Below are positions 11,836 through 64,000 of a stretch of DNA of 64,000 nucleotides, one piece after another (positions within the stretch are counted from its first letter, which is position 1; each line of letters opens with the position of its first letter). A program made the translations under genes and the position numbers. The stretch is taken from the IMG/VR virus record IMGVR_UViG_3300045256_000567. One strand, given 5' to 3'. The notes below the pieces were generated by a model that ran no database searches, was not told the DNA's origin, and saw only the letters and a list, made by a program, of their open reading frames with translations. The stretch comes from a virus.

Positions 11836-13251
11836 TTATACTATAGGTGATTGTCCTACGTTAACAATAATGAAGTTAAATTCTGGTGCTCTGGAGAATA
11901 CAGAAGCAACCTTCCATACTACATAGTCATGAGTTAGGGCAGGTGGTAGTCTATATAGCTCCATACCAATCCAGCTAGCCATTGTAGTTACATTGTAATC
12001 AAGTCCTAATACTGAACCAGTACCAGGAATCTTTTGCCATCTGTAAACTCCAGTAGGAGTAGTTACAGTTTCGTGACCATCATCAATCCAAGTAAAGTCA
12101 CCGTTAGTAGTAGATACCTTTACTCTCTTGTAAAACTTGTATTCGCTAGAATTTGGGTCTTGTCTATATACATCAAGCCACTTTACATTAGTTAGTCCGT
12201 GGAAGTCAAACTTTACAGCTTTGTTTGCGTCTGAAGTTGTAAAGCTTGCTGTAGCGTACTTTGCCGCACTCTCACCATAGAAGTTAGCGGCCTTAAATGC
12301 ATATCCATACGCAGTAGCGACGCTAGCGCTTCCTAGTCCTGTTGGGTAAGCGCTTGCTTGAAGTGATGGAGATGCGACGTCTATAGTCCAAGAAGAAGGT
12401 GGCGAAGCAAAGTCACCCACTTCAGCACCGAAGCGAGCGGGGTTAAACTTATGGAAATCACCAAGGAATTGAGAAGGATATAGAGTGTGTTCTCCACGAA
12501 TACCAATGTATGATTGAGCATCAGCACCAAGAAGACCGGCGCGTCTATCAGAAGTATTCATTACTCTTGCAATTTGATAGAAAGAAGCTTGTAGGTTTAG
12601 CTTGTCAATATAAGAAATAAATACTGCGGTTGGATTAGCGAATGCTTGAGTAGATACAACTTTAGATTCTGCTTCCCAAAGTAGGTCAATAGTTAGAGGA
12701 GCACCTTTAGCGTCAAGAACGTTTTGTGGAGCACCTCTCTTAATAATATTTACAAGTCCGTCTTGTTGTAGGTTGTTTGGAGACCCAGGAACATCGTCAC
12801 CAAGAGTGCTATCGCCATAGAAAGCTAAATATTCAAATTCGTTTGCTACAGCGATCATCTTTTCACGTTTAGCAAGTTCGTCAATTTGCATTACACCGTT
12901 TTGAGTGGTACGGGTAGCCAACTCAGTTACAGTAATACGGTGCCCAACAAGCATTGGCCTGATTCTTCTTCTTGCTACTTGTACCTCTACAGTTCTAGGT
13001 AGACCCCCCTCTCTAAAGGCAGCGAAACCAATTTTATCATGACGTGCAGTTACAACGTTGTATTCGTGCTCATAAGCACGAGCTTTTACAGAATTTTTAG
13101 AAAGCATGTCAGTAAGAGGAGTGTCTAGTACGTTTAGTTGAGTAAGCTCACCTTCTAAGTCCTCTCTTTCTAAACTTTCTGCTACTTGACCAGCGGCGTT
13201 TAGCGCCTTTAATGTTGCTTCATCTAAATGTTTTAAATGTTCATATGGCAT
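11836..13251 (-). CDS. Major capsid protein (HK97 fold, SPO1/Twort-like)
   Basis: TLKA|LNAAG..SLEREDLE, EYLAFYGDS, QDGL..II and VLDAKGAPLT motifs; strong RBS, biased codons and its own terminator. Confidence 0.88.
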   Translation of the reverse strand: MPYEHLKHLDEATLKALNAAGQVAESLEREDLEGELTQLNVLDTPLTDMLSKNSVKARAYEHEYNVVTARHDKIGFAAFREGGLPRTVEVQVARRRIRPMLVGHRITVTELATRTTQNGVMQIDELAKREKMIAVANEFEYLAFYGDSTLGDDVPGSPNNLQQDGLVNIIKRGAPQNVLDAKGAPLTIDLLWEAESKVVSTQAFANPTAVFISYIDKLNLQASFYQIARVMNTSDRRAGLLGADAQSYIGIRGEHTLYPSQFLGDFHKFNPARFGAEVGDFASPPSSWTIDVASPSLQASAYPTGLGSASVATAYGYAFKAANFYGESAAKYATASFTTSDANKAVKFDFHGLTNVKWLDVYRQDPNSSEYKFYKRVKVSTTNGDFTWIDDGHETVTTPTGVYRWQKIPGTGSVLGLDYNVTTMASWIGMELYRLPPALTHDYVVWKVASVFSRAPEFNFIIVNVGQSPIV

Positions 13252-14876: not shown

Positions 14877-14892
14877 ATTATATATAAATTAT

Positions 14893-14915
14893 AACACACG
14901 TTTGCAGAAAACCTA
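14893..14915 (+). mobile_element. IS200/IS605 left-end scar overlapping the protease promoter (TGTTATAAT on the minus strand)
   Basis: TTAT|AACACACGTTTGCAGAAAACCTA matches the left ends at 16213, 54074 and 58036 up to the first 4 nt of the hairpin. Confidence 0.7.
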
Positions 14916-14935
14916 TGTATTTTAAAAAGAAATTT

Positions 14936-15292
14936 TTAGTCTTCTTTTAAATCCTTAAAAAAGTTCGGAAGATTATTAAACAAATCAATTAAGGGATTAT
15001 TTTTGTCTAAAAATCCTTCTAATGATAAATTACCATTAAAAGAAGATAAAGATGTAATACCAAAAGAAATTCTTGTACTTAAGGTTTCATCAAAACCATA
15101 AGTTACAACAGTAACTGTTTTAGAACAATCTCTTATGACACTAAACTGTCTATTGATAACTGACATTATTGCAATATTCCCAAGAGGAGAATCACTATTT
15201 AATAAAGTAGTTATTCCATATAAAGGAACTGTTGGATAATAATTGTTAAAAAATGATACATTTATAGCTGGCATTTTAGGCGTATGGTGCAA
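14936..15292 (-). CDS. Hypothetical protein (start possibly at the second Met, MPAINV)
   Basis: 118-aa ORF within the structural operon. Confidence 0.55.
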   Translation of the reverse strand: MHHTPKMPAINVSFFNNYYPTVPLYGITTLLNSDSPLGNIAIMSVINRQFSVIRDCSKTVTVVTYGFDETLSTRISFGITSLSSFNGNLSLEGFLDKNNPLIDLFNNLPNFFKDLKED

Positions 15293-16196
15293 ATGTGAAA
15301 TTTAGAAGTACTCTTTTTGTTGGAGCGTCCTCACTTATATATCTAAATAATAAAAATGGATAATACGTTTGGTTTCTAAATGGTGGGACATTGTTATATT
15401 GTGGTTTTAAATTGACAGGGCCATTATTTTCACTTACCGAAGTTATGCTTGTTTGACCATAATTGATTAAATTTTGTACAGCCAAAACAAAATTTCCAGT
15501 AGTGGGGTCTATATTATCCATAAAATCATTTGTATTATTTGATTGAAGAACAGAAAATCTATATTTAATAATTTGATTAAAAAATCCCAACTGATTTGAA
15601 TATGTTGGATTATTTGTAAGAAACATAGTATTGTAGGAGTTAGAGGTACCAGCTATAGCATTTAAATATGCTGGTTTAGATGGATCATTAATTACGGTTT
15701 GGTGTATTATAGGTGCTGCAATAAAAATTCCATAATCTGGTGTACACCTTGAAGTATCAACAGAAAAAATTGGATTTGAAAGTATAAAATTGTTTTCGTT
15801 ATCTACGTTTGGATCTATTACTGTTGTATTAACAAAATACAATACTATAAAATCTATGTAATATCTTTTTCCATTAATTATATAAGGCCCATATCCATTA
15901 CATGATATGTTATCTGGAGAGGTTAAGCATGCAGAACTTCCTACATATAGATTCGAATTATTAAATTGCTTTATAAATTCCAAAAATTTTATCTTATATG
16001 ATGTTGTATCTTTATAGCCTATTAATTGAACATTTACTTTTTTTGAAGGATCTGGAAGTCCAATACTATTTAATTCATTTACATACGCCCATTCATAATT
16101 TGGATTTAATTGAGATGTTGTATTTATTATTATAGACCCCATTGGATCTATTACCGTATTTTGTCCATAAAATAGTGAAAATGTTTTGTCTGGCAT
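15276..16196 (-). CDS. Hypothetical virion structural protein
   Basis: 306 aa, N/P/T-rich, in the structural cluster. Confidence 0.6.
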   Translation of the reverse strand: MPDKTFSLFYGQNTVIDPMGSIIINTTSQLNPNYEWAYVNELNSIGLPDPSKKVNVQLIGYKDTTSYKIKFLEFIKQFNNSNLYVGSSACLTSPDNISCNGYGPYIINGKRYYIDFIVLYFVNTTVIDPNVDNENNFILSNPIFSVDTSRCTPDYGIFIAAPIIHQTVINDPSKPAYLNAIAGTSNSYNTMFLTNNPTYSNQLGFFNQIIKYRFSVLQSNNTNDFMDNIDPTTGNFVLAVQNLINYGQTSITSVSENNGPVNLKPQYNNVPPFRNQTYYPFLLFRYISEDAPTKRVLLNFTFAPYA

Positions 16197-16212
16197 ATTC
16201 TAAAACAATTAT

Positions 16213-16409
16213 AGCACAGTTTGCAGAAAGCCTACACCTTTATGTGTAGGATGAATGCAAACAAATTTGGATACGTACCTATACCTGCACCAAATGCAAC
16301 ACAACCCTTCATCGGGATATTGCAGCAGCACAAAATATCTTGGCTAAGGCTCTGACAAAGTCTTCGCTTCTTGCGAGAAGCCCAATTCTTTAGAATTGGG
16401 AGTCGTCAC
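16213..16409 (+). mobile_element. Non-autonomous IS605-family miniature element: left end + 3' tip of tnpB/omegaRNA + right end
   Basis: Follows TTAT. LE hairpin CCTACAC-CTTTAT-GTGTAGG. The interior translates as IWIRTYTCTKCNTTLHRDIAAAQNILAKAL (TnpB second CxxC plus RuvC-III). RE is GAAG-CCCAATTC-TTTA-GAATTGGG-AGTCG-TCAC. Confidence 0.9.
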
Positions 16410-16410
16410 A

Positions 16411-51726: not shown

Positions 51727-51784
51727 AAAAGTTTCTATAAAAAGAGAAAATAATTATTCTTAGAATATTATAGCATATTTCGCT

Positions 51785-51810
51785 GTGACGACTCCCAATT
51801 CTAAAGAATT
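51785..51810 (-). mobile_element. Truncated IS605 right end
   Basis: AATTCTTTAGAATTGGGAGTCGTCAC is identical to the right ends at 16409 and 53417; the GAAGCCC foot is lost. Confidence 0.85.
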
Positions 51811-51836: not shown

Positions 51837-52358
51837 TCACGAAACTTTTTCAAAAATTAGCTGCTTTGTAAGTATTTGGTATGTGAACCAGCTTGTGTTA
51901 AACCAAACATTTTTCTCGGTTTTAGAAAAGTTAACTCTTCTATCGAGAATCAATACTTCAATTCCAAACTTTCTAAAAAGTTCTCCTCTCTCGATTCCCT
52001 CCAAAGCAGTGATTGGAAGCAAGAGCGCGAAAGGTTTTTGGTATTCATAGCATTTTTTTAAAAATTCAGTTTTCAGAGAGTAGGGCGGATTTGTTATTAT
52101 TACGTCAAACTCAAAATTCGGCGAATCGTTAAAAAAATCAAATCCATCTTTGATATGTGTAGAAATCACTTTAAAATCAAACTCTTTAAGAACTTTCACA
52201 ATTTCACTTTTGCCGAAATCAGTCGGTTCCCAATAGATTTTTTCTTTGGGCAGATATTGGAGAATCGGTAATATAGCTTCCCTTGGCGTGTAGTATTCAT
52301 CGTTTTTTTCGTTTTTAACGTAACTTATAAGAGAATTTTTCAAAAAGACCACCCCCAA
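51837..52358 (-). CDS. Small N6-adenine methyltransferase-like protein (phage type)
   Basis: NDEYYTP, GFDFF and ITNPPYS catalytic motif IV. Confidence 0.8.
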   Translation of the reverse strand: MGVVFLKNSLISYVKNEKNDEYYTPREAILPILQYLPKEKIYWEPTDFGKSEIVKVLKEFDFKVISTHIKDGFDFFNDSPNFEFDVIITNPPYSLKTEFLKKCYEYQKPFALLLPITALEGIERGELFRKFGIEVLILDRRVNFSKTEKNVWFNTSWFTYQILTKQLIFEKVS

Positions 52359-52364
52359 AAAACA

Positions 52365-53330
52365 TTAATCGGTAGCAGAAAAAAGCGTATGTTCACTTTT
52401 AACATTGTAGTTGATCCAAATACTTTCAACTCTTTGTGCAAAAGAATGTACAGCCCCCTTTCCTTGTAGTTTACTTGATCTTGTTCTACCTGCTGCATGG
52501 CTTACAGTAGTTTTGTCAAACCTTGTCCATCCTTCGTTTTCTAACTTATCATAAATTTTATTTTTGTATCCTGAAAGCATTACTTTTCCTTTTACGTTTA
52601 ATAGCAAATCTACTAGTTTTTCGTGATAGTCATCTGATAATTCATACTTGTATTCTCCTTGTTTTCTTGTGGAATTTACATAAGGTGGATCAATATAAAA
52701 AAATGTTTTTGAAGAGTCCCAATACTCTATTGCTTTTAAAGCGTCTACTTTATCAATTTGTACTCTAGATAGGCGTTCATGCCACCAATAAAGCATTTTT
52801 AAATGACTGCGCCAATTATTTACATTAGATGCCATCCCTCGGTTTATTTCAGATAAAATACGCCCCCAATCACCTTCTGTACTTGCTTTACCTCCAAAAC
52901 CTTGATTTTGTGTTACGAAAAATGCCCAAGCTTTATCAATATCGTTATAATTTTCAGGGCATTCTAGAATTTTTAAAGCGCATACAAATTCCGATCTTGA
53001 ATATGGTGTCCACAATAGCTTGTGTAGAAGATCGTCAAATGTATCTTTGTTCTGTAACACACGAAAAATATTTACAATTCTGTCGTCTATGTCGTTCAGC
53101 ACTTCTACTTTGTAAGGTTTTTCTAAATTCCAGAACAAGTTTGCCGCTCCTGCAAATGGTTCTACATATATTTCAACATCATCATTAAAGGGTATGTAGT
53201 TTAGTATAAATTTCACCAAATTTCCTTTCCCCCCAAACCATCTAAAAGGCGCCATAATTCTGTTGGGTTTTTCTATGCTGTCAAGAATTTCTTTTGCTAA
53301 TAGAGATTTGAATGCTAAAGTTTTGTCCAA
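52365..53330 (-). CDS. Dam/D12-class DNA adenine methyltransferase (start revised to TTG 53330)
   Basis: PFRWFGGKG, YVEPFAGAA, EVLNDID, FYIDPPY, VMLSGY; TGATATACT lies 8 nt upstream of the TTG. Confidence 0.9.
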   Translation of the reverse strand: MDKTLAFKSLLAKEILDSIEKPNRIMAPFRWFGGKGNLVKFILNYIPFNDDVEIYVEPFAGAANLFWNLEKPYKVEVLNDIDDRIVNIFRVLQNKDTFDDLLHKLLWTPYSRSEFVCALKILECPENYNDIDKAWAFFVTQNQGFGGKASTEGDWGRILSEINRGMASNVNNWRSHLKMLYWWHERLSRVQIDKVDALKAIEYWDSSKTFFYIDPPYVNSTRKQGEYKYELSDDYHEKLVDLLLNVKGKVMLSGYKNKIYDKLENEGWTRFDKTTVSHAAGRTRSSKLQGKGAVHSFAQRVESIWINYNVKSEHTLFSATD

Positions 53331-53416
53331 TTTTCTAAAGTATATCACAAAAATTTTTCTATGGAGTGTTTTTCTCACCAAACCCACCACAGCAAGGGCC
53401 ACTACTACCAAACCCA

Positions 53417-53535
53417 GTGACGACTCCCAATTCTAAAGAATTGGGCTTCTCGCAAGAAGCGAAGACTTTGTCAGAGCCTTAGCCAAGATATTTTGTTCTG
53501 CTGCGATATTCCGATGAAGGGTTGTATTGCATTTG
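53417..53535 (-). mobile_element. IS605 tnpB 3' remnant/omegaRNA scaffold + intact right end
   Basis: Nearly identical to 16291-16409. It translates as KCNTTLHRNIAAEQNILAKAL (RuvC-III D to N) and ends GGGAGTCGTCAC. Confidence 0.9.
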
Positions 53536-53695
53536 TCATGTGGGAAATTACATGTATCCCCGCTTTGAAAAGCGGGGAATTATAGCTCCCCCACACCCCC
53601 TCAATTTTTTAACCGTACAACACACCAAGCAATGGCGTTTACTTTTGAAAGTCAAAAAAATAAAAACCTCCCAATAGGGAGGTTACTTTGGGAGG

Positions 53696-53848
53696 TTACT
53701 TTACTCGAAACATCCAAGTATCTTCCTCTAAAGTACCGAAAAAGAACCAAGTTTCCTTTCCATCCGTGACATGATGCATGTCGCTGTATCGCCATTTATC
53801 AGCTGACTTGATATCCTTCCAACGCTTAGCTTCGATGTACCACTTCAT
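53696..53848 (-). CDS. Small early protein (50 aa, Trp-rich; not in ORF track)
   Basis: MKWYIEAKRWKDIKSADKWRYSDMHHVTDGKETWFFFGTLEEDTWMFRVK*. AAGGAGG RBS, own promoter, and terminator at 53665-53684. Confidence 0.8.
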   Translation of the reverse strand: MKWYIEAKRWKDIKSADKWRYSDMHHVTDGKETWFFFGTLEEDTWMFRVK

Positions 53849-53892
53849 TATTACCTCCTTTACACAGAAAGGACATCCCTTCCTGTGACTTC

Positions 53893-53921
53893 ATAATACC
53901 ACAATACAACAACCTTGTCAA
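53893..53921 (-). promoter_or_regulatory. Sigma70-type early promoter
   Basis: TTGACA-17 nt-TATTAT with TG extension. Confidence 0.85.
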
Positions 53922-54001
53922 TACCCTTACGACCAATCGGCGGCTAGCGGGTATTGCGAGTATTGCTGTAGCGAGTAGGATGTGTTAGCGAGTTCATTAT
54001 G

Positions 54002-54074
54002 ATTATACCATATACAGGAAGTTTAGTTGCATTCATCCTACACCTAAAGGTGTAGGTTTTCTGCAAACTGTTCT
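54002..54074 (-). mobile_element. IS605 left end with internal TGGTATAAT promoter
   Basis: TTAT|AGAACAGTTTGCAGAAAA-CCTACACC-TTTA-GGTGTAGG-ATGAATGCAA. Confidence 0.85.
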
Positions 54075-54162
54075 ATAAGATTACCGATCCTCCCTGTGAA
54101 TGAGGCGTTTACTTTTGAAAATAGCAAGAAAAAAAAGAAACCCCCTTATTAGGGGGTAAAAT

Positions 54163-54369
54163 TCACTTTACCTGGAAGACAGCGGTGTTCAGGTATGGCA
54201 GGCCGAAACCTCCCCACACTTCTACGTATTCTCCTTCCTTGATCTTTACGATCAAGAAGGAGTAATCTTCCTGAACACCCTCTGCTTTCAAAATTTCTTG
54301 AATGTTTACTGAATCTTTCTCCAGAAAATAGCTATCATCCTGGAAATCTTTGACCCTAGGTATTATCAT
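54163..54369 (-). CDS. Small early protein (68 aa)
   Basis: AAGGAGG RBS, promoter at 54411-54439, terminator at 54140-54157. Confidence 0.85.
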   Translation of the reverse strand: MIIPRVKDFQDDSYFLEKDSVNIQEILKAEGVQEDYSFLIVKIKEGEYVEVWGGFGLPYLNTAVFQVK

Positions 54370-54410
54370 GATTACCTCCTTCCAGGAAGGGTCACCCTTC
54401 CTGTGACTTC

Positions 54411-54439
54411 ATAATACCACAATACAACAATCTTGTCAA
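54411..54439 (-). promoter_or_regulatory. Sigma70-type early promoter
   Basis: TTGACA-17-TATTAT. Confidence 0.85.
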
Positions 54440-54628
54440 TAACATTACAACCAATCAGCAGTTAGCATGTATTGTTGATGCTAATGTAGCGAGTAAAGTT
54501 TGCTAGCGAGTGCATTAGAAGAAACGCACCCATAAACGCAAGACCAAAATACGCAAAATCACTAATACCCCTTCCAAAAAGAGGGGCAAAGCGTTTACTT
54601 TTGAAAGGCGGAAAAAATAAAAATCCCC

Positions 54629-54769
54629 CTATTCGGGGGATTTTTCGGATTCCTCGGATTCTTTGTATTTAGAATCCTTGTATCCTTCTTGCTTCAATTC
54701 CTTGATAATTTCCTTAACCTCTGCGATAGAAATTCCGGATTCCATGATTTCGTAAAACAGGTCTTTCAT
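54629..54769 (-). CDS. Small acidic early protein (46 aa; not in ORF track)
   Basis: MKDLFYEIMESGISIAEVKEIIKELKQEGYKDSKYKESEESEKSPE*. AAGGAGG RBS; the stop codon lies in the terminator hairpin at 54619-54645. Confidence 0.8.
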   Translation of the reverse strand: MKDLFYEIMESGISIAEVKEIIKELKQEGYKDSKYKESEESEKSPE

Positions 54770-54810
54770 TTTTACCTCCTTCACAAGAAGACTATTCTTC
54801 CTGTAATTTC

Positions 54811-54839
54811 ATATTACCACAATACAGCAATACTGTCAA
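54811..54839 (-). promoter_or_regulatory. Sigma70-type early promoter
   Basis: TTGACA-17-TAATAT. Confidence 0.8.
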
Positions 54840-55028
54840 TACCCACAACACACACACACAATCAACGGCTAGCGTGTATTGCAAGTATTGCTGTAGCGAG
54901 TGGAGTGTGTTAGCGAGTGCATTAGGGTAAACTCACTCATAAACGCAGGACCAAGCAACATAAAATCGCTAATACCCCCCTGAGCGGGAAGCGTTTACTT
55001 TTAAAAACAGCAAGAAAAAAATCCCCCC

Positions 55029-55217
55029 CTATTTAGGGGGATCTTGATTGAAATAATCGCTATCTAAATACCTAATAACAACGTCAGGGTACTCCTCCGA
55101 AACCTTCTTTAGAACATCATCAATCCGTTCAGCAGAAAGGACGCACTTATAACGGAACCCCTCAATTCTCTCCAGAATTGACCAGCCATCTGAACAGGGA
55201 ACTAGATAAAGATTCAT
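55029..55217 (-). CDS. Small early protein (62 aa; start revised to ATG 55217)
   Basis: AAGGAGG precedes MNLYLVPCSDGW. The longer track ORF runs through the promoter. Confidence 0.8.
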   Translation of the reverse strand: MNLYLVPCSDGWSILERIEGFRYKCVLSAERIDDVLKKVSEEYPDVVIRYLDSDYFNQDPPK

Positions 55218-55257
55218 TACTTCCTCCTTACAGGAAGGCTGTCCTTCCTGTGACTTA

Positions 55258-55286
55258 ATAATACAACAATTCAGCAATGTTGTCAA
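55258..55286 (-). promoter_or_regulatory. Sigma70-type early promoter
   Basis: TTGACA-17-TATTAT. Confidence 0.85.
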
Positions 55287-55499
55287 TACCCTTACGACCA
55301 ATCGGCGGCTAGCGTGTATTGTTTATGCTCATTTAGCGAGTAAAGTTTGCTAGCGAGTGCATTAGAATAAACGCACCAATAAACGCAACGCAAAGAATAC
55401 CAAAATACAAAATCCCCCTATTGAACAGAGGGGGGGTGAAAAGCGTTTACTTTTGAAAGCCGATAAACAAATAATCCCCCCAATTCGGGGGGATTTTGT

Positions 55500-55703
55500 C
55501 TAATCCTCGATCCTCTGCAAAACCTCCTTACCAGTTTTAGGGTACTTGAACACCTTATACCGGATCTTGTTGTACTCTACAACCTTACCGGTATCCTGGG
55601 GTCCACTTGAAGCGCGACAATTAGGGCAAAGATCAGGAACCCGACCGACGCCTTTGTACTCAAAAATCGCGCCGCACTTCTTGCACTTCACTAGTTTTTC
55701 CAT
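55500..55703 (-). CDS. Small zinc-ribbon early protein, copy 1
   Basis: CKKC...CPNC; promoter TTGACA-17-TATTAT at 55738-55766; terminator at 55473-55495. Confidence 0.85.
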   Translation of the reverse strand: MEKLVKCKKCGAIFEYKGVGRVPDLCPNCRASSGPQDTGKVVEYNKIRYKVFKYPKTGKEVLQRIED

Positions 55704-55911
55704 AACAACCCCCTTTGTAGGTTCTTCCTACACCTTTATAATAGCATAATAAGTCATAGTTGTCAATAGGTATAATTTAGGTATACTTGAGGCATACTTG
55801 AGCGCGTATGCATTTACAAAAGGTTGATAACCTAGAAACTAAAAAATGAGTAAACGCTTGGGGTACACAGATTTACAATACCCCCTGTATTAAAAAATAC
55901 CCCCTTTTAAA

Positions 55912-56373
55912 TCAATCCAAAAACTCTAAATACCCGTCAAATACACCTAATGAAAAAGCTTTCTTTCTAGAGGATACCAAGATATCTGCTGTATTACTGT
56001 ATCTAGAGTGCATGGTATCGTAAACGATTCCTTCTATTACAGATTCATTAGAAAGATATATTTTTACTTTTTTCCCGCAAATCTTTTTGCCGTTTGAGAA
56101 AAATAGATCTCTAGAGAGTGCGATAACTGTTTCTTTTACTTCTTTTAATTTCCCACAAGAAGTAGTTAATGGATCATTATCGGTTTCTTGCGAAGAAAGA
56201 GTATAGAAAGAAATTCTATTGAGAGGAATTTTATTATTTTCTATTTCGCGCGATTTTTCTTTAATAAAAAGCATTTTTCCTATTTCTTTTGAGAATTCTA
56301 AATATTCATGAGAAGAAGGCGAACTCGAGATTGCACTAGTTAACATCAAAGTTAAAATCAGAGTTTTTTTCAT
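55912..56373 (-). CDS. 3D-domain (MltA-like double-psi barrel) cell-wall-acting protein with signal peptide
   Basis: FYT...ETDNDPLTTSCG, IALSRDL, VYDTM...ADIL; hydrophobic N-terminus; GGAGG RBS. Confidence 0.75.
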   Translation of the reverse strand: MKKTLILTLMLTSAISSSPSSHEYLEFSKEIGKMLFIKEKSREIENNKIPLNRISFYTLSSQETDNDPLTTSCGKLKEVKETVIALSRDLFFSNGKKICGKKVKIYLSNESVIEGIVYDTMHSRYSNTADILVSSRKKAFSLGVFDGYLEFLD

Positions 56374-56489
56374 TTATACCTCCGCTACGTTCTACAGTAC
56401 TAATACACGACAGTCTAACACATATGAAACAATACTACAAACTAAAGCGTTTATTTTGATTTGTGCATTTTTTGCACAAATCAAAAAAT

Positions 56490-57014
56490 TCAAAACACTT
56501 CAAAAAAATTAAAATGACTATAACTGTAGAATTTAATTTCTTTTATGTATTTATTTTCCTGAAAATTTATTTTTTTATTACTAAAAAGTAAAAATGAAGA
56601 TCTAATAACACATCTTGTTTTTCCTTTGTATAGTTCTATAGTTTCATTAAAGTCTATAGAATCTGCTATTTTGTTTAAATCATAGTTATATTCTTTTAAA
56701 TCAAAAAAGGCGTTTTTTGTAACTTCACTATTTGGACTTTTATAGATAGGTTTTTCATTATAAAATTTTATTTTCAAATCAATGTTTATTCCCGAAAAAT
56801 CAAGAAAAAACTTTTCTAATAATTTAGAAAATTCGTTTTCGTGTATCTCATAATAATTTGTAGTTTCTTTAATATTTGGGGCGTTTTTTTCTACATATAC
56901 ATAATAGATATTAGAATCTTTCCTGCATGTATTTATTGCGTAGAAATTTCCAAATTTGGAAACGATTTTATCTAATAAAGTTTTTTTTAATTCAAGTAGC
57001 GAGTTTTTGCGCAT
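56490..57014 (-). CDS. Hypothetical protein, C-terminal [LIV]F family (paralog of 59210..59731)
   Basis: Ends FFEVF; TGTATACT lies 6 nt before the ATG. Confidence 0.75.
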   Translation of the reverse strand: MRKNSLLELKKTLLDKIVSKFGNFYAINTCRKDSNIYYVYVEKNAPNIKETTNYYEIHENEFSKLLEKFFLDFSGINIDLKIKFYNEKPIYKSPNSEVTKNAFFDLKEYNYDLNKIADSIDFNETIELYKGKTRCVIRSSFLLFSNKKINFQENKYIKEIKFYSYSHFNFFEVF

Positions 57015-57063
57015 AGTTTCAGTATACAGCGTTTACTTTTAGAAAAATTTTTCAAACCAAAAA

Positions 57064-57579
57064 TCAAAATATACTAACAACGTTAGCGGAGCGAAAGATA
57101 GAAAATTCAATAAAGTTTAAAATGTAGTCATCATTTAACTCACATCTACCGTTTGGGTACAAAAGTATAGATATTTTTACTAACAAATTTTTTACTTCTT
57201 TTATATCTTCCGGTTTTTTGAAGTTAATAGTTTTTAATCCATACAGAAGCTTTTCTAAATCTTTTCCAAAATCGGCGAAATTTAAAGATAGAATAGTATA
57301 TTCCAACAAGGCATCATCGCAATATGGGTAAATAAATACTTTTGTTGTACCCAATCGATCTTTAATATTTTCTGTGTTAATAATTTCATTAAACCTGTCT
57401 GTACTTAATGGATAGTTTTCTGAATGACCGTCTGAATAGGTTACTGTAATACCGCGAATATAATTTGAGAAAAAATTATTTAAGTAGTTAGCTTCTAATG
57501 AATAATTTTTAACAATTTGAAGTAAAAAATAATCAGCAACTTCATCAAAAATATCATCAAAAGTTGTGTAGGTAAGCAT
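57064..57579 (-). CDS. Hypothetical protein, C-terminal [LIV]F family
   Basis: Ends VVSIF; TTGACC-18-TACACT lies 5 nt before the ATG. Confidence 0.75.
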   Translation of the reverse strand: MLTYTTFDDIFDEVADYFLLQIVKNYSLEANYLNNFFSNYIRGITVTYSDGHSENYPLSTDRFNEIINTENIKDRLGTTKVFIYPYCDDALLEYTILSLNFADFGKDLEKLLYGLKTINFKKPEDIKEVKNLLVKISILLYPNGRCELNDDYILNFIEFSIFRSANVVSIF

Positions 57580-57672
57580 GCTTTAGTGTACCACGACACA
57601 TACTAGCAGGTCAAGTACACATATAGAGGAATAGCGTTTACTTTTGAAAAGTGGGAAAAAATAAAAACCCCC

Positions 57673-57792
57673 TTATTCGGGGGTTTTAGAATCCTTGGAT
57701 TCAGAATTCTTTGATTCTGCATATCCTTCTTCCTTCAATTCCTTTAAAATCCATCTCGAATCTTCAATTGAGATACCAGATTCCATCAAATC
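57673..57792 (-). pseudogene. 5'-truncated paralog of the 46-aa gene at 54629..54769, disrupted by IS605 insertion
   Basis: DLMESGISIEDSRWILKELKEEGYAESKNSESKDSKTPE* begins immediately after the IS right end. Promoter, RBS and first codons are missing; the terminator at 57664-57687 is retained. Confidence 0.75.
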
Positions 57793-58036
57793 GTGACGAC
57801 TCCTAATTCTAAAGAATTAGGCTTCTCGCATTTAGCGAAGGCTCCGTCCAAGCCATTATCGGTATTTTCTTATTTTCCCGATAATTACCTTGAATCTTAT
57901 GATTCAAGTACCTACCAGCATTTTCAGCTTTGTAGGATTTGGTGTGCTTATCTTGCACAAGTTCATTATACCATAGAATTTCAATTTTTGCATTCATCCT
58001 ACGCCTAAAGGCGTAGGTTTTCTGCAAATCAATGTT
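57793..58036 (-). mobile_element. Non-autonomous IS605-family miniature element (second subtype) with internal promoter and omegaRNA-like scaffold
   Basis: TTAT|AACATTGATTTGCAGAAAA-CCTACGCC-TTTA-GGCGTAGG; TGGTATAAT; four internal hairpins; RE GAAG-CCTAATTC-TTTA-GAATTAGG-AGTCG-TCAC. Confidence 0.9.
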
Positions 58037-58200
58037 ATAAATGTAAAGTCAGTTAGCGGGTGTTATTGTGGTAAACGCACCAATAAACGCACCGAGAAGA
58101 ATACCAAAACACAAAACCCCCCAATCCAAAAAGAGGATGAGCGTTTACTTTTGAACACCCATAAACAAATAATCCCCCCAATTCGGGGGGATTTTGACTA

Positions 58201-58407
58201 CTAGTCAATACGCTGCAAAACCTCCTTACCAGTTTTAGGGTACTTGAGTACCCTATATGTAACGCCGTTATGTTCTATCACCCTTCCAGTATCTTGAGGA
58301 CCGCTTGCCGCTCTACAATTAGGGCAGAGATCAGGCACCCTGCCGACACCGGCATACTCGAAGATTGCCCCACACTTCTTGCACTTCACGAACTTTACAT
58401 TAGGCAT
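58201..58407 (-). CDS. Small zinc-ribbon early protein, copy 2
   Basis: Close paralog of 55500..55703; promoter at 58443-58471; terminator at 58171-58193. Confidence 0.85.
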   Translation of the reverse strand: MPNVKFVKCKKCGAIFEYAGVGRVPDLCPNCRAASGPQDTGRVIEHNGVTYRVLKYPKTGKEVLQRID

Positions 58408-58645
58408 GACTCACCTCTCTTGTAGGTTCTCCCTACACCTTTATAATAGCATAATAAGTCATAGTTGTCAATAGGTATACTTGAGGCATACTTGAACGCG
58501 TATGCATTTACAAAAGGTTGCTAACCTAGAAACTAAAAAATGAGTAAACGCTTGGGGGGGTGAATTTAAACTAATACCCCCATTCGCTAAAATGGGGGTA
58601 ACTAATAGCGTTTACTTTTTAGGCGCGGATTTAAAAAAATTTAAT

Positions 58646-59152
58646 CTAAAAAAGTTGTACAACTGAAAATGTCCTATTTATGCGTATACTTATTCCAAGT
58701 ACTTTACAGTCTTTGTCTTTCTTTAATATTTCATTTAGTGATATATCTTTTTTAATACTGTAAAACATAGAAACTCTTATATTTATTTCCCCGTTATGTA
58801 TTTTTTCTATTTCTCTTTTAGCTTCCGAAAATCTATCTACTAGAAAGAAATCAAATAATCTTTCTTCATTATGAGAAAAAAAGTTATTTAGAGTATTTAC
58901 GTATGTGTCTTCCTTTGTGTAAGAAACAACAATATCTACAGATTCAAATTTTATGTATTTTTTATATTTTCTTTCTATCATTTCTATTGTTTTTTTATCT
59001 ACTAAAGTAAACGGCATTGATACGTCATCTAGTCTCTCCAATTCCAATAAATATAAATCCTTTTCCTCCTTAGAAAATAGTTTAATAAATTCGCTTTCAA
59101 GTTCATAGTTAATTACCTCCACTAGTAAATTTGCTTTATTTATTATATTCAT
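58646..59152 (-). CDS. Hypothetical protein, C-terminal [LIV]F family
   Basis: Ends VVQLF; purine-rich RBS. Confidence 0.75.
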   Translation of the reverse strand: MNIINKANLLVEVINYELESEFIKLFSKEEKDLYLLELERLDDVSMPFTLVDKKTIEMIERKYKKYIKFESVDIVVSYTKEDTYVNTLNNFFSHNEERLFDFFLVDRFSEAKREIEKIHNGEINIRVSMFYSIKKDISLNEILKKDKDCKVLGISIRINRTFSVVQLF

Positions 59153-59209
59153 TTTTCCCCCCTTCTAGTTTTGGTACACTATATATACTATAGATATATG
59201 GAGCAGTGG

Positions 59210-59731
59210 CTAGAATAAGGTTGCTGTATCTATAAACCTGTACATATAATAAGATAAATTTTTTATATACTCATTTTCCATTATTCTTATACCGGCGTCG
59301 CTGTAAAAAATAAATGAATACCTTACAGTGAGTTTATTTTTGCTAGTTACAGACTCTGTAATATCTAAAGGTTCAAAGGATTCAAATACTTGTTCTATGT
59401 TATAGTCATAATCTTCTAAACTAAATTCTGAATATGATTTGTATAAAGGAAAATGTGCCTGTGTGAATGGATTACTATCGTATATTTGTATTCCAACTTC
59501 TACTGCCTCAAAATCAAAAAGATATTTATCTAATAGCTGTAAAAATTCTTCTTTATCAATATCATGTTCAAGTTCTTCTGTTTCCTCAAAGCGAAAATGA
59601 ATGAATTCTGTAAAAAGTTTAAATAATTCTTTATTTTTATTATTAATATTTAAAATTTGATTTTCAGTAATTGCAGATTTAATACTTTTTAAAACTTTGC
59701 TTTCTAGCATATCAGTGGCTTCAGGCATCAT
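59210..59731 (-). CDS. Hypothetical protein, C-terminal [LIV]F family
   Basis: Ends TATLF; aligns with 56490..57014 (EFxxLLxK..xDF, FxLxxYxYxI, ENxYIK). Confidence 0.75.
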   Translation of the reverse strand: MMPEATDMLESKVLKSIKSAITENQILNINNKNKELFKLFTEFIHFRFEETEELEHDIDKEEFLQLLDKYLFDFEAVEVGIQIYDSNPFTQAHFPLYKSYSEFSLEDYDYNIEQVFESFEPLDITESVTSKNKLTVRYSFIFYSDAGIRIMENEYIKNLSYYMYRFIDTATLF

Positions 59732-59747
59732 ACAGTTTTTCCTCCCT

Positions 59748-60155
59748 TTAAAACAGCTCTCTAGTAAGTATAATTATATTAAAACTCACAAATACTTTTT
59801 TACAGGGTACATCTTCAAAAATTTTTTTATCATTTTTAACTTCACATGAAAAATGAAAAATAGTTTTAAAATAATTTTCTTTAATCATTTTTAAAGTATG
59901 CAAATGAACAAAGTCATTTAGTGTTTTTAATTTTTTAGTTGATGAAAACGTGGATAAGGTTTTTGTTAATTCAGTTTCGTCAATAACATAATTTCTAAAG
60001 GATATTTTTTTTACAATAGCATCATTGGCGTTATTTCTATATTTAACGTCGGGAATATATATAACTTCGTGTACGTAGGTGCTATAATTTTGATAAATAG
60101 TAGATTTAGCAGTGTTAATTAACTCATTTTTTATCTCTTCTATAGTTCTGTTCAT
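59748..60155 (-). CDS. Hypothetical protein, C-terminal [LIV]F family
   Basis: Ends TRELF; GGAGG RBS. Confidence 0.75.
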   Translation of the reverse strand: MNRTIEEIKNELINTAKSTIYQNYSTYVHEVIYIPDVKYRNNANDAIVKKISFRNYVIDETELTKTLSTFSSTKKLKTLNDFVHLHTLKMIKENYFKTIFHFSCEVKNDKKIFEDVPCKKVFVSFNIIILTRELF

Positions 60156-60169
60156 TTTTATCCTCCCTC

Positions 60170-60754
60170 TTAAAACAGTTCTTTTACATCTACGAGATAC
60201 GTGAACATAACTTCTATGGGCAGTGTTTTTATGTGTTTTATTTCTATGTTATTAATTGGGTACCAAGTAACACTTGTTTTGTGGTTTTTTAAAATAGAAT
60301 ACAGCTCAAATACATCTTCTTTATTTCCTATCAAAGGAAATTCTATATCTAATCTAAAAAAATGACAATTAAGAAAATCTTGTAATGAAAATACATATCT
60401 TGTCTTATACACTTCAATTATTCTATAAAATGCTTCCCTTAACTTAAAGTTAGCAAGATTTGTTTTTTTATCAAATACAGTAAAGTCTCTGAAATATGAC
60501 ATTATATCAACAAAAATATTATTTTCTATTACCTCAAATCTATTTAATATATCTGTTAGTTTTTCGTATTCGTTATTTTTTATAACCGCCCACAATAAAG
60601 ATCTATTATCTCTTTTTTTATCAATAAATTCTATAGTAATTTTTTCAGATATAGAGTTGGGAACTAAATAAAAATCTCTAAAATATTCTTCCGTTAAACA
60701 CACCAAATCATTTCTTAGTGTTTCGGATATTTTTTTTGTTTCATCAAGCTTCAT
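60170..60754 (-). CDS. Hypothetical protein, C-terminal [LIV]F family (paralog of 60779..61384)
   Basis: Ends VKELF; GGAGG RBS. Confidence 0.75.
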   Translation of the reverse strand: MKLDETKKISETLRNDLVCLTEEYFRDFYLVPNSISEKITIEFIDKKRDNRSLLWAVIKNNEYEKLTDILNRFEVIENNIFVDIMSYFRDFTVFDKKTNLANFKLREAFYRIIEVYKTRYVFSLQDFLNCHFFRLDIEFPLIGNKEDVFELYSILKNHKTSVTWYPINNIEIKHIKTLPIEVMFTYLVDVKELF

Positions 60755-60778
60755 TTACACACCTCCCCCTACAAACTT

Positions 60779-61384
60779 CTAAAATAATTTGTTTATTTTT
60801 GCTCCGAATAAAAACTCTATTTCTACAAAAACATTGTTGCTATTATTGAAAGTTATTTCTTTATATGGAAACCAGGACGATTTTATAGTGTTGTTTCTAA
60901 GAACGTTAAACAATTCAATCATGTAATTTGTGTTAGTTCTTTCTAAGAATACAGATTCTAAGCGCAATTGAAAAAATTGTTTTTCTAGATAATCTTCACT
61001 TAGAATATGTATACTTTTGTAACTGTCCATTAGTTCGAAAAAACTTTTATTTATATCAAAATTATGGATTGGCTTAATTAAATCATCAAAAAATATGTAA
61101 TTGCTGTAATATGTATTTAATTTAGTGTTAACATTTTTTTGTACTTCAAGTTCATTTAAAATATCTTCAGCTAATAACAAAATATCTTTACAGGTAACTA
61201 ATTTTGTTATAGTTCTATCAATCCCGCTTCCTAAAAGACGATCTCCATTGTCAATAAATGTTACAAAAATATTTTCTTGGCACAAGCTAACACAATTATT
61301 AAAATTATCAAAATATTTTTCAATAGCGTAACAAAATTCATTTTTAAAATGATAAGCTTGATTTTTTATTTCGCTAAAGTTCAT
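60779..61384 (-). CDS. Hypothetical protein, C-terminal [LIV]F family
   Basis: Ends INKLF; AGGAGG RBS. Confidence 0.75.
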   Translation of the reverse strand: MNFSEIKNQAYHFKNEFCYAIEKYFDNFNNCVSLCQENIFVTFIDNGDRLLGSGIDRTITKLVTCKDILLLAEDILNELEVQKNVNTKLNTYYSNYIFFDDLIKPIHNFDINKSFFELMDSYKSIHILSEDYLEKQFFQLRLESVFLERTNTNYMIELFNVLRNNTIKSSWFPYKEITFNNSNNVFVEIEFLFGAKINKLF

Positions 61385-61398
61385 GGTTTACCTCCTGT

Positions 61399-61827
61399 TT
61401 AAAACAAAGGTAAAATATTAAACAAATGTTCTTCAAACACATGATAATTTTCATCATGAATGTCTAAAGAAATTTTAATTTTTCCAACTTTTTGAACTTC
61501 AGAAATTTCTTTATAAATTTTTTCAATGAATTTATAAAAGTCATTTATTTTATAATCAAAGTAAATGCTAGAAATATAAAATGATTCTCCGCTTTTAGCG
61601 AAATTAGACGTACCATCCCAAAGTACAAAGCTAATATTATAAGAAATGTGCAAGTCTTTTAAATTCTTTTTTTCTTTTCTTGGACTTACATATTCGTCTA
61701 TTTTTTTTAGAAAGTGAGTATTTACATATTTATTTAAATCAAATAATTGAATTCTATAAGGTTCAACTATATCTTTTAATCTTTTTACTTCTTTTAAGAT
61801 TTCCTGGTTTTTGTTAGGCTTGTACAT
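61399..61827 (-). CDS. Hypothetical protein, C-terminal [LIV]F family (leaderless; start revised to ATG 61827)
   Basis: TTGACT-17-TATCCT lies 6 nt before MYKPNK; ends ILPLF. Confidence 0.75.
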   Translation of the reverse strand: MYKPNKNQEILKEVKRLKDIVEPYRIQLFDLNKYVNTHFLKKIDEYVSPRKEKKNLKDLHISYNISFVLWDGTSNFAKSGESFYISSIYFDYKINDFYKFIEKIYKEISEVQKVGKIKISLDIHDENYHVFEEHLFNILPLF

Positions 61828-61906
61828 GACTATAGGATACACCCACAGCAGTCTACAGTCAAGCCTGCTGCTACTTAGCGTTTATTTTTTTCGCCTAAAA
61901 CTAGTA

Positions 61907-62527
61907 TTAAAAAATATTTTGTAAAGTAATGTTTTTATAAAAAATACAAGTTACTAAAAGATTCCCCGCTTCAAGTATTTCAATCATCATACTTTTGTCA
62001 AATTCATTAAATGAATCCGTGGAAAAAAATATATCTTTATTGTTTTCTATAAAGTTTTTTATTTTATTTTTTTCATTTTTTAGTTCAAAGTCTACGTGAG
62101 ATTGTATAAAGTTTATATTTATATTTGATTTTATACAATCATTGATTGATTTATTTATTTTTAAAAGAATATTCTTTTCGTTTCTATGTAATTCCTCATT
62201 TAAATAATTAAAGTTATTTTGTACGTCTAGGGGTCCCTCTTCAACAGATATGTATGTGTATATTTTTGAATAATCTACTTTTATTTTTCCTATAGAATTT
62301 AGTACTTTTCTGTATAGAGGATTGTTTGCATCTACTGAAGCTATAAACAATTCTCCGTAATCTCTTCTATTTATATCATTTCTATTTTCTACTTCATCGA
62401 AGAAAATATAAAAAATATCTTCTTCATTTAAAATTACTGATGGAAGGTTTTTATTAATTATTTTTTTAAGGGATAAGTGAAATCTTTCAGCAATTCTTTC
62501 TAATTTTGTTAACATAACTAACCCCAC
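61907..62527 (-). CDS. Hypothetical protein, C-terminal [LIV]F family
   Basis: Ends LQNIF; the true start is probably the internal ATG (MLTKLE). Confidence 0.75.
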   Translation of the reverse strand: MGLVMLTKLERIAERFHLSLKKIINKNLPSVILNEEDIFYIFFDEVENRNDINRRDYGELFIASVDANNPLYRKVLNSIGKIKVDYSKIYTYISVEEGPLDVQNNFNYLNEELHRNEKNILLKINKSINDCIKSNININFIQSHVDFELKNEKNKIKNFIENNKDIFFSTDSFNEFDKSMMIEILEAGNLLVTCIFYKNITLQNIF

Positions 62528-62533
62528 AAAAAA

Positions 62534-63094
62534 TTAAAAAATCTCATCTAATTTTACCGTTATATAACCAGTAAATTTTACAATACTTGAATCATTAAAG
62601 TTAGTATTAAAAATTTCATTACGAATTTCGTACCACACTTCATTATTTATTTTATCATTAATAGACAGAATGTATTTTCTGAAAGATTCAACGAGGATTG
62701 AATCAATAGTTATATCTTTATATTCATTAGAAAATGAACATAACACTCCTTTACTAGTAGAATTAGATAGATGTTTTGCTAATTTATTTAACCCCCTATA
62801 ATAAATTCCGGTAGGTCTGGTTACTTTGTTCAATCTATAGTGCATGTATTTAGTACCATTTAATATCCTAACTGAAACACTTTTTTTGCTGAAAAGAAAG
62901 TTGTTGAAAAAAGACAGTAGTAAATAAAACTCTTTAGTTCCCAAATCAACAGAAATACACCCATTTAGTCCACTAAAATTTTTTCTTTTATAGAAGCATA
63001 GCGATAATGTTTTTTCTAAAGTTATAATTAAAAATCTTGGAAGTGTTTTTTTGAATTTTTCTACAACAATCTCTATATCCGTTTCTTTTATCAT
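62534..63094 (-). CDS. Hypothetical protein, C-terminal [LIV]F family (paralog of 63108..63665)
   Basis: Ends LDEIF; shares DIEIVxEKFK, LGTxEF, IRILxG and YYRG with the next gene. Confidence 0.8.
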   Translation of the reverse strand: MIKETDIEIVVEKFKKTLPRFLIITLEKTLSLCFYKRKNFSGLNGCISVDLGTKEFYLLLSFFNNFLFSKKSVSVRILNGTKYMHYRLNKVTRPTGIYYRGLNKLAKHLSNSTSKGVLCSFSNEYKDITIDSILVESFRKYILSINDKINNEVWYEIRNEIFNTNFNDSSIVKFTGYITVKLDEIF

Positions 63095-63107
63095 TATCCC
63101 CCCTAAT

Positions 63108-63665
63108 TTAAAAAAGTTGTTCTAGTTTTAATGATATGTAACTAGTACAAAACATATCACTTGAATTTATAAAGTAAGGTCGCAAAATTTCTTCATTAAG
63201 GTCTCTAAATAAATCGTCACTTATCTCTCCCTTTAAAGAAGAAACATAATTTACAAATGAATTAACAATTATTGGATCCAGGTCTATGTGTGAATATTTA
63301 TGAGAAAGTGTGCAAACTAATTGTTCATTACTTATACTAGATAAATTTTCTACTAATTTTTTTATACCTCTATAATAAACCTTATTATTGTTTCTCACAA
63401 TATCGATTCGCTCATATGAAAAATCATGTCCCTTTAAAATTCTTATATTTATACTTTGTTTGCTAAAAAGACGTTCCTTAAAAAATGATTGTATTAAATC
63501 AAATTCTCTGGTTCCTAAAGTTACAACAATAATTCCTGTAACATCATTTATATATCTTTTTCTGTAAAAATTAAAAACCATTACTTTTTCTAATTCAGTA
63601 ATCAAAAAATTAGAAAACCTGATTTTAAACTTCTCTGCTACTATTTCTATATCACTATTATTCAT
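63108..63665 (-). CDS. Hypothetical protein, C-terminal [LIV]F family
   Basis: Ends LEQLF; GGAGG RBS. Confidence 0.8.
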   Translation of the reverse strand: MNNSDIEIVAEKFKIRFSNFLITELEKVMVFNFYRKRYINDVTGIIVVTLGTREFDLIQSFFKERLFSKQSINIRILKGHDFSYERIDIVRNNNKVYYRGIKKLVENLSSISNEQLVCTLSHKYSHIDLDPIIVNSFVNYVSSLKGEISDDLFRDLNEEILRPYFINSSDMFCTSYISLKLEQLF

Positions 63666-63706
63666 TTTGTCCTCCCTTTTTAGAGAAGTTCTTCTAAGCT
63701 TTTCTT

Positions 63707-64000
63707 TTAAAATAGCGGAGAAAAAGAAAATTGTACTTTCATAAAATAAAGAACTTTTTTTGCCTCTTCAATATTTTCTGAAGGAAATAAATTCTTCAGT
63801 TCTTTTAATTTTTTCTCGTCAATAAAAAAATGAGATGTAAGATAAAAATTTACTAATATAGCAGTATCGGCACTATTATAAAGAAAAAATCTAATGGTAT
63901 CAAAAAATCCAGTTTCAGAATTGAAACATTTTATCTTTGATTTATTTTCTTTGTGAGAAACAGAAAAATCATAATATGAAGGAGGTACATTAGAAAATAA
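63707..64000 (-). CDS. C-terminal part of a further [LIV]F-family protein (truncated by the window end)
   Basis: Frame open from 64000: LFSNVPPSYYDF...LYFMKVQFSFSPLF*. Confidence 0.7.
   Translation of the reverse strand, partial: LFSNVPPSYYDFSVSHKENKSKIKCFNSETGFFDTIRFFLYNSADTAILVNFYLTSHFFIDEKKLKELKNLFPSENIEEAKKVLYFMKVQFSFSPLF

Follow-up and report, generated by a model that had tools for sequence, protein, structure and literature searches.

The locus studied here raises the question of what a guide-RNA-like unit does in a phage genome when no nuclease gene lies beside it. The window, a stretch of 64,000 nt from IMG/VR record IMGVR_UViG_3300045256_000567 with a G+C content of ~28%, is assigned to a phiYS40-like Thermus myovirus because its predicted major capsid protein (11836-13251, minus strand) shares 84-85% identity with the phiYS40, TMA and YS40_Isch counterparts. 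A JGI hot-spring contig (3300045107, 68.9 kb) shows 100% identity to window positions 53108-64000 and extends 31.7 kb beyond. The original prediction had described the locus as a stand-alone omegaRNA-like expression cassette without TnpB; a sequence check found every feature it had listed in place on the minus strand, and its core idea of a TnpB-type right end with an omegaRNA scaffold, an own promoter and a flank-derived guide is supported. We propose that this segment, named copy C, is probably an omegaRNA gene that would be served in trans by the phage's TnpB, which would cut element-free alleles.

Organization of copy C

On its sequence, copy C (58036-57793, minus strand) is securely placed as a 244-nt non-autonomous, PATE-type IS200/IS605 element, an internally deleted copy of an ISDra2-like IS. 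Its features are as follows.

58037..58040, minus strand: TTAT target and transposon-adjacent motif (TAM), directly 5' of the left end
57987..58036, minus strand: left end of type LE2 with a hairpin at 58017-57998 (8 bp, TTTA loop), as in the full-length element L190:3328-3375 and copies A, B1, C2 and F
57965..57973, minus strand: predicted extended -10 promoter TGGTATAAT, equal to the parent's tnpB promoter; identical motif in L190
57855..57958, minus strand: 5' extension of the RNA with three or four hairpins, made of decayed and internally deleted tnpB 3' coding sequence
57793..57854, minus strand: omegaRNA core, 62 nt (covariance-model match 57868-57793)
57854-57840, minus strand: stem 1 with GGACG loop
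57838-57826, minus strand: short stem 3
57821-57802, minus strand: right-end hairpin or stem 4, 8-bp stem with UUUA loop
57801-57793, minus strand: tail ending in TCAC
57773..57792, minus strand: flank, putative guide of 16-20 nt; also the start (TTG/ATG) of a truncated small gene, 57789-57673

Copy C keeps what transposition needs, namely the left- and right-end hairpins, the TTAY target and the TCAC end, and the subterminal hairpins at its two ends are alike, with 8-bp stems and a TTTA loop. The tnpB promoter of the parent and the 62-nt omegaRNA core in its entirety are retained as well. Upstream of the core, hairpins occupy 57908-57889 and 57885-57855, and within the 109-nt interior (57963-57855), positions 28-53 (~57936-57911) show an 88% match to the codons for AYKAEEAGR found in several TnpB genes. 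A folding energy of -55.5 kcal/mol was computed for the predicted transcript 57958-57793, which is much more structured than shuffled sequences (z = -6.9). The sole reading frame through the element (72 aa in copy C, 85 aa in its twin C2) consists of left end and tnpB scraps, and its 85-aa version in C2 gave no Pfam match. Two other origins for the left end were rejected: its hairpin is not a remnant of TnpB N-terminal coding sequence, as the tnpB ATG of the full-length element comes after the promoter, and its motif is not a native late promoter of the phiYS40 type, having zero copies in phiYS40.

The parent element and its TnpB

No intact tnpB was found within the window. On the 3300045107 contig, ~21 kb from copy C in the same phage genome, lies a full-length element (L190:3328-4558) that is preceded by TTAT, encodes a 375-aa TnpB and shares its left end, TGGTATAAT and right end with copy C; the TGGTATAAT motif is identical to that of copy C and stands 22 nt before the tnpB ATG. 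The gene product (L190:3415-4542) contains all three Pfam TnpB domains, aligns with ISDra2 TnpB over residues 3-362 (E 4e-56), has a zinc finger as well as the D, E and D motifs of RuvC, and shares 64% identity with the TnpB of Thermus phages phiLo and T72, in both of which TnpB genes are annotated. By these sequence features the phage TnpB is intact and catalytically complete. The IS parent thus lives in this phage, and its sequence has drifted to the phage's low G+C.

The description of the locus as being without TnpB therefore holds within the window and fails for the genome as a whole, where an intact TnpB with matching ends is available ~21 kb away. Likewise, a supply of TnpB in trans now has a natural partner, and an outside source is unneeded with the cognate gene on the same phage genome. 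The lack of any cognate TnpB, which had been named beforehand among the findings that would make the copies inert relics, is thereby contradicted.

The omegaRNA scaffold

A covariance model, R1, was built from an alignment of 21 TnpB-linked right ends. RNAalifold predicted stem 1 and the terminal hairpin on this alignment, with double changes in 11 of the 16 pairs, and stems 1 and 4 covary among the 21 relatives. R1 scored 77.8 bits for the phage's full-length element, 68.7 bits for copy C (E 4e-15, full model length) and for its twin C2, 58.1 bits for copies A and B2, 41.2 bits for the degenerate copy F and 13.4 bits for a solo right end. In stems 3 and 4, copy C and the full-length copy differ by compensated pairs only, and the covariation of the right-end stem between subtypes, which had been noted before, was confirmed as a compensated pair. 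Copies A, B2 and F have a common variant of the stem-1 loop. An Rfam search at gathering and permissive thresholds yielded no family at threshold, the best being RAGATH-30 (22.5 bits versus a gathering score of 59.5).

The layout of copy C recurs in the tnpB 3' ends of phiLo and T72, which consist of a GGACG-loop stem, a variable stem, AAGCC, an 8-bp hairpin and a TCAC or TCAT tail. A pattern scan retrieved such right ends, whose hairpins covary freely, from Thermus, Meiothermus, Calidithermus, Deinococcus, Bacillota, Chloroflexota, Planctomycetota, haloarchaea and many IMG/VR contigs; 16 of these right ends come after a full TnpB gene. The form found after TnpB genes (phiLo, T72, Thermus, Meiothermus, Calidithermus, Deinococcus and others) is AAGCC, an 8-bp hairpin and a TCAC-ending tail. 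Independent minis in phiLo and Thermus retain a promoter together with the sequence from stem 1 onward, which may reflect selection on the RNA.

In the ISDra2 omegaRNA structure a UUUA tetraloop is located at -20 to -17, and a pseudoknot joins the stem-1 loop with nucleotides -6 to -2 (PMC10097598). Copy C has UUUA at -21 to -18 and a GGACG loop that can pair with the tail, so the pseudoknot proposed earlier between the GACG loop and CGUC fits the ISDra2 topology and would be possible as a pairing. Both partners are nearly invariant across the family and show no covariation. With a stem-1 loop of 5 nt here versus 19 nt in ISDra2, the fold may differ.

Other copies and remnants

Related copies in the window were located by a repeat search and local BLAST, and the 3300045107 contig contributed the twin C2 and an older mini, copy F.

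16213..16409, plus strand: copy A, LE2 joined to the final ~45 tnpB codons and the right end; no promoter; stem-1 loop variant
53417..53613, minus strand: copy B2, a 197-nt mini that combines a left end of the canonical Thermus type (LE1) with the final ~34 tnpB codons and the right end
54000..54077, minus strand: B1, a solo LE2 with TGGTATAAT; native intergenic sequence resumes after it, as judged against paralogous intergenic regions
51784..51810, minus strand: solo right-end remnant, half hairpin and tail
L187:8427-8669 (3300045107 contig): twin C2, at a TTAC site, with flanks unlike those of copy C

The frames preceding the right ends of copies A and B2 correspond to the TnpB C-terminus, with the zinc-finger CxxC and the RuvC-III motif HRDxAAxQNIL. 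In tblastn, copies A and B2 matched phiLo TnpB with E values of 4e-12 and 3e-5, respectively, and copy A matched the phage TnpB with 79% over 47 aa. The LE1 of B2 matches elements of Calidithermus, Meiothermus, phiLo and T72 at 90-94%. Copies A, B2 and F and the solo right end are decaying and promoterless; the term expression cassette is thus apt for copy C and inapt for copies A and B2, which lack TGGTATAAT. The right ends and flanks of these two copies (16409/16410 and 53417/53416) are as originally described, but what had been taken as one element at 53417 is two things, a solo left end with promoter (54077 to ~54000) and a separate mini (~53613-53417). A single cargo-carrying transposon spanning 54081-53417 was ruled out, as the right part possesses a left end of its own and the DNA in between runs colinear with the native array.

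Between a point immediately 3' of the left-end hairpin and TCAC, C2 and C are 100% identical. As judged from the two sequences, this identity shows recent copying, not selection. A third C-type RNA unit was found starting at one end of a Logan contig, where it is preceded by a different -10 context. At L202:1-110, ~7.7 kb before the window start, two head-to-head left-end stubs form a long palindrome, which is followed by TGTGCTATAAT and then by the start of a C-type RNA unit, inside which the contig ends.

Left-end stubs also occur in the window at 3709-3688 (minus strand) and 14889-14915 (plus strand). The first ~20 nt of the element's left end stand alone at these two places, and are found also at 16208-16225; on the opposite strand the stubs read as an extended -10 promoter located 6-11 nt before gene starts. 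Since this left-end-derived motif is absent from phiYS40 and has 5 matches in the window, three of them being left-end-derived sites, the stubs look like they now serve as promoters, and one such promoter appears to serve the head protease-capsid operon (start 14876). Window 14877-16410 is a synteny break relative to phiYS40, with a left-end stub at the junction: the orthologs of YS40_153-155, located at 136 kb in phiYS40, are here directly upstream of the head protease and capsid genes. Elsewhere, right-end copies flank two adjoining methyltransferase-like frames in window 51837-53411 (minus strand), a D12-class Dam-like frame (52365-53411) and a short EcoRI/Eco57I-like fragment (51837-52358); the copy at 53417 is directly upstream of the first and that at 51810 is downstream of the second.

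Neither copy A nor copy C found a match by blastn among 50,697 phage records, and the exact right-end pattern was absent from viral, genome and metagenome contig collections, which do not contain this phage.

Insertion sites and the position of copy C

Left ends are preceded by TTAT or TTAC in 8 of the 9 copies or stubs, and the right ends of all copies finish in TCAC. The TTAT target inferred earlier is thereby supported in the broader form TTAY, the paralog having TTAC directly before the position that matches the right flank of copy C. The reconstructed empty site did not survive in two respects: TTT TAT had been expected and the left flank of copy C reads ATT TAT, and this flank, which had been derived from paralog coding sequence, is instead homologous to intergenic DNA of the paralogous array (~55345). 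The right flank matches about codon 10 of the paralog 54769-54629, and ~590 nt of the array are missing between the two flanking homologies. With its left flank intergenic and its right flank within a paralog's coding sequence, copy C therefore sits at a ~590-nt deletion, which removed the promoter and the start of the gene downstream of it. In the simplest reading, two copies would have recombined or the array would have suffered a deletion adjacent to one of them.

The array in question, window 53400-58600 (minus strand), is composed of small-gene cassettes with a G+C content of ~40%, well above that of the rest of the phage. Each cassette has a near-consensus promoter (TTGACA, 17 nt, TATTAT), a gene of 50-90 aa, a strong terminator and a conserved box, AAAAGTAAACGC, of which three consecutive copies are present at L187:8760-8850.

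Copy A, 197 nt long, has inserted cleanly and with no target duplication between the orthologs of YS40_153 and YS40_154; in phiYS40 a distance of 23 nt separates these two genes. It is inserted into the -10 box in the promoter of gene 16196-15276 (window 16196-16213). The site reads TGATATAAT without the element, and with it the left-end bases give TGCTATAAT; the left end supplies these bases, and an extended -10 is therefore present before and after insertion.

Transposase and targets

A search of ~103 kb of phage sequence and of phiLo returned no Y1 TnpA, and TnpA is present in all four Thermaceae genomes searched (Thermus, Calidithermus, Meiothermus). The tnpA-tnpB element of T. parvatiensis has the same right-end tail but a canonical LE1 left end, and mobility of copy C with a host TnpA acting on LE2 is putative.

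A search for the TAM plus guide with up to 3 mismatches gave no target in phiYS40, phiLo, T72 or two Thermus genomes. Within the phage, the closest match is that in the paralog, at 54755, where the first 16 nt contain 4 mismatches and 3 of these fall in the TAM-proximal 6 nt. Apart from the presumed empty site, no target emerged from the phage, the three Thermus phages or the two Thermus genomes. Element-free alleles were sought in assemblies by means of the flanking proteins, and none was found, the contigs breaking inside the copies; a scan of metagenome contigs, in a collection that does not contain this phage, likewise returned none.

Proposed function and alternative readings

We propose that transcription from TGGTATAAT would run through the scaffold into the flank to yield an omegaRNA with the guide 57792-57773. 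The phage's own TnpB would bind this RNA in trans and cut DNA reading TTAY plus the flank, the target being the element-free allele that arises after excision or is present in a co-infecting relative. Recombinational repair from an element-bearing genome would then restore or spread the element. Moves to new TTAY sites would need Y1 TnpA, which the phage apparently lacks and the Thermus host encodes. Use in trans by the phage TnpB is suggested by what TnpB is established to do (PMC10055086), and agrees with the retention of the promoter, an intact scaffold and the presence of a cognate nuclease. Because copy C sits at the ~590-nt deletion, the allele matching its guide may be gone from the population.

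This proposal has to be weighed against the reading of copy C as a purely selfish or inert mini transposon, which the host TnpA would copy via both ends and whose omegaRNA part would persist only by its overlap with the right end and by its youth, with no RNA-guided activity. We regard such an element as somewhat unlikely. In its favor, C and C2 are identical and too young to show purifying selection, the older copies A, B2, F and the solo right end are decaying and promoterless, and the retention of stem 1 among TnpB-less relatives gives a mixed picture (12 of 28, a rough count from a crude regular expression with limited TnpB detection). By analogy with IS608, however, the hairpin and about 10 nt next to it should suffice for TnpA, and stems 1 and 3, which it would not be expected to need, are intact with compensated changes. 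The parent's promoter is moreover retained base for base, another unit of the C type has the RNA preserved downstream of a different promoter context, and an intact cognate TnpB is present. A use other than guiding would be that of promoter and 5' leader for the truncated small gene 57789-57673, the structured RNA being the leader. The gene's native promoter and start are missing in comparison with the paralogous array, TGGTATAAT is directed into the gene, a GGAG in the right-end tail stands ~10 nt before the TTG start and a terminator (57687-57664) follows. Twin C2, however, has a different downstream context and the 38-aa remnant may be a pseudogene, so that co-option as a leader appears improbable; it would in any case be compatible with an omegaRNA being processed out of that transcript, just as TnpB processes its own mRNA.

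The suggestion that the copies guide a nuclease-dead regulator, a TldR-like TnpB relative repressing a phage or host gene, draws solely on the general TldR precedent (PMC10705468). It found no support: the phage TnpB retains the RuvC D, E and D residues and the zinc finger, no TAM-plus-guide match with at most 3 mismatches was found in the two Thermus genomes and three Thermus phages, and the phage itself contains a single near match, in which 4 positions disagree, 3 of them within the TAM-proximal 6 nt. We consider a regulator of this type highly improbable. Trans-acting guidance of the phage TnpB by copy C could also be part of something larger, a dispersed multi-guide system in which one or a few TnpB genes would serve at least 3-4 promoter-driven omegaRNA genes that are selected as RNA genes (-10 box plus RNA) and not as transposons, and with which the phage would cut and convert, or exclude, co-infecting relatives without the insertions. 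This extension seems unlikely to us at present.

Comparison with known systems

To our knowledge, TnpB transposon derivatives reduced to the guide RNA are on record from bacterial chromosomes, and their use in trans has hardly been tested. The phage described here offers a compact natural test system, with a thermophilic phage, one intact TnpB, several minis with different guides and a TnpA-supplying host. It could show whether minis bias their own inheritance or aid the phage against relatives, and how multi-guide nuclease systems originate from transposons. Groups working on genome editing, too, may take an interest in a thermostable TnpB whose core scaffold measures only ~62-76 nt and whose motif is TTAY.

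As in the ISDra2 TnpB-omegaRNA of Deinococcus radiodurans (PDB 8BF8/8EXA/8H1J; PMC10097598), the omegaRNA consists of the tnpB 3' end and the right end with the flank as guide, a terminal UUUA-loop hairpin lies ~20 nt from the guide, and the guide-adjacent tail can pair with the stem-1 loop. The omegaRNA here has a core of ~62-76 nt where that of ISDra2 measures 116 nt, its stem-1 loop comprises 5 nt and its stem 3 is very short; TTAY takes the place of TTGAT as the target, and copy C is without any tnpB.

Meers et al. 2023 reported that PATEs often encode omegaRNAs needing TnpB from other elements in trans (PMC10055086). Copy C is for this reason a well-resolved phage example and not a new kind of system. 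Like the PATEs of Geobacillus stearothermophilus (PMC10055086), it has both ends, no protein gene and, putatively, mobilization in trans; unlike those chromosomal elements, it is found on a lytic-type phage genome, keeps the parent's promoter and is accompanied by at least two further copies of the RNA unit.

The elements of the phiLo and T72 phages and of Thermus and Meiothermus have the right-end tail, stem 1, AAGCC motif and hairpin form in common with those described here. They are G+C-rich with a canonical LE1, whereas the phage copies have a diverged, A+T-rich LE2 found only in this phage among the sequences compared. In phiLo (MH673673; L001-L016) there are 9 right ends of the family versus 3 TnpB places; several of these right ends belong to minis of ~130-200 nt comprising the left end, TGGTATAAT and the last ~65 nt, which are unannotated or annotated as small hypothetical proteins.

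Thermus Lalka phages encode a Cas12r-CRISPR system, in which a TnpB-derived RNA-guided nuclease uses several guides and interference was shown (bioRxiv 10.64898/2026.04.20.719267). The Cas12r guides are crRNAs from an array next to the gene, whereas the putative guides here are dispersed transposon right ends. If the multi-guide reading were true, these right ends would represent a natural intermediate on the way from a transposon guide RNA to a CRISPR-like phage arsenal such as that of Cas12r in other Thermus phages.
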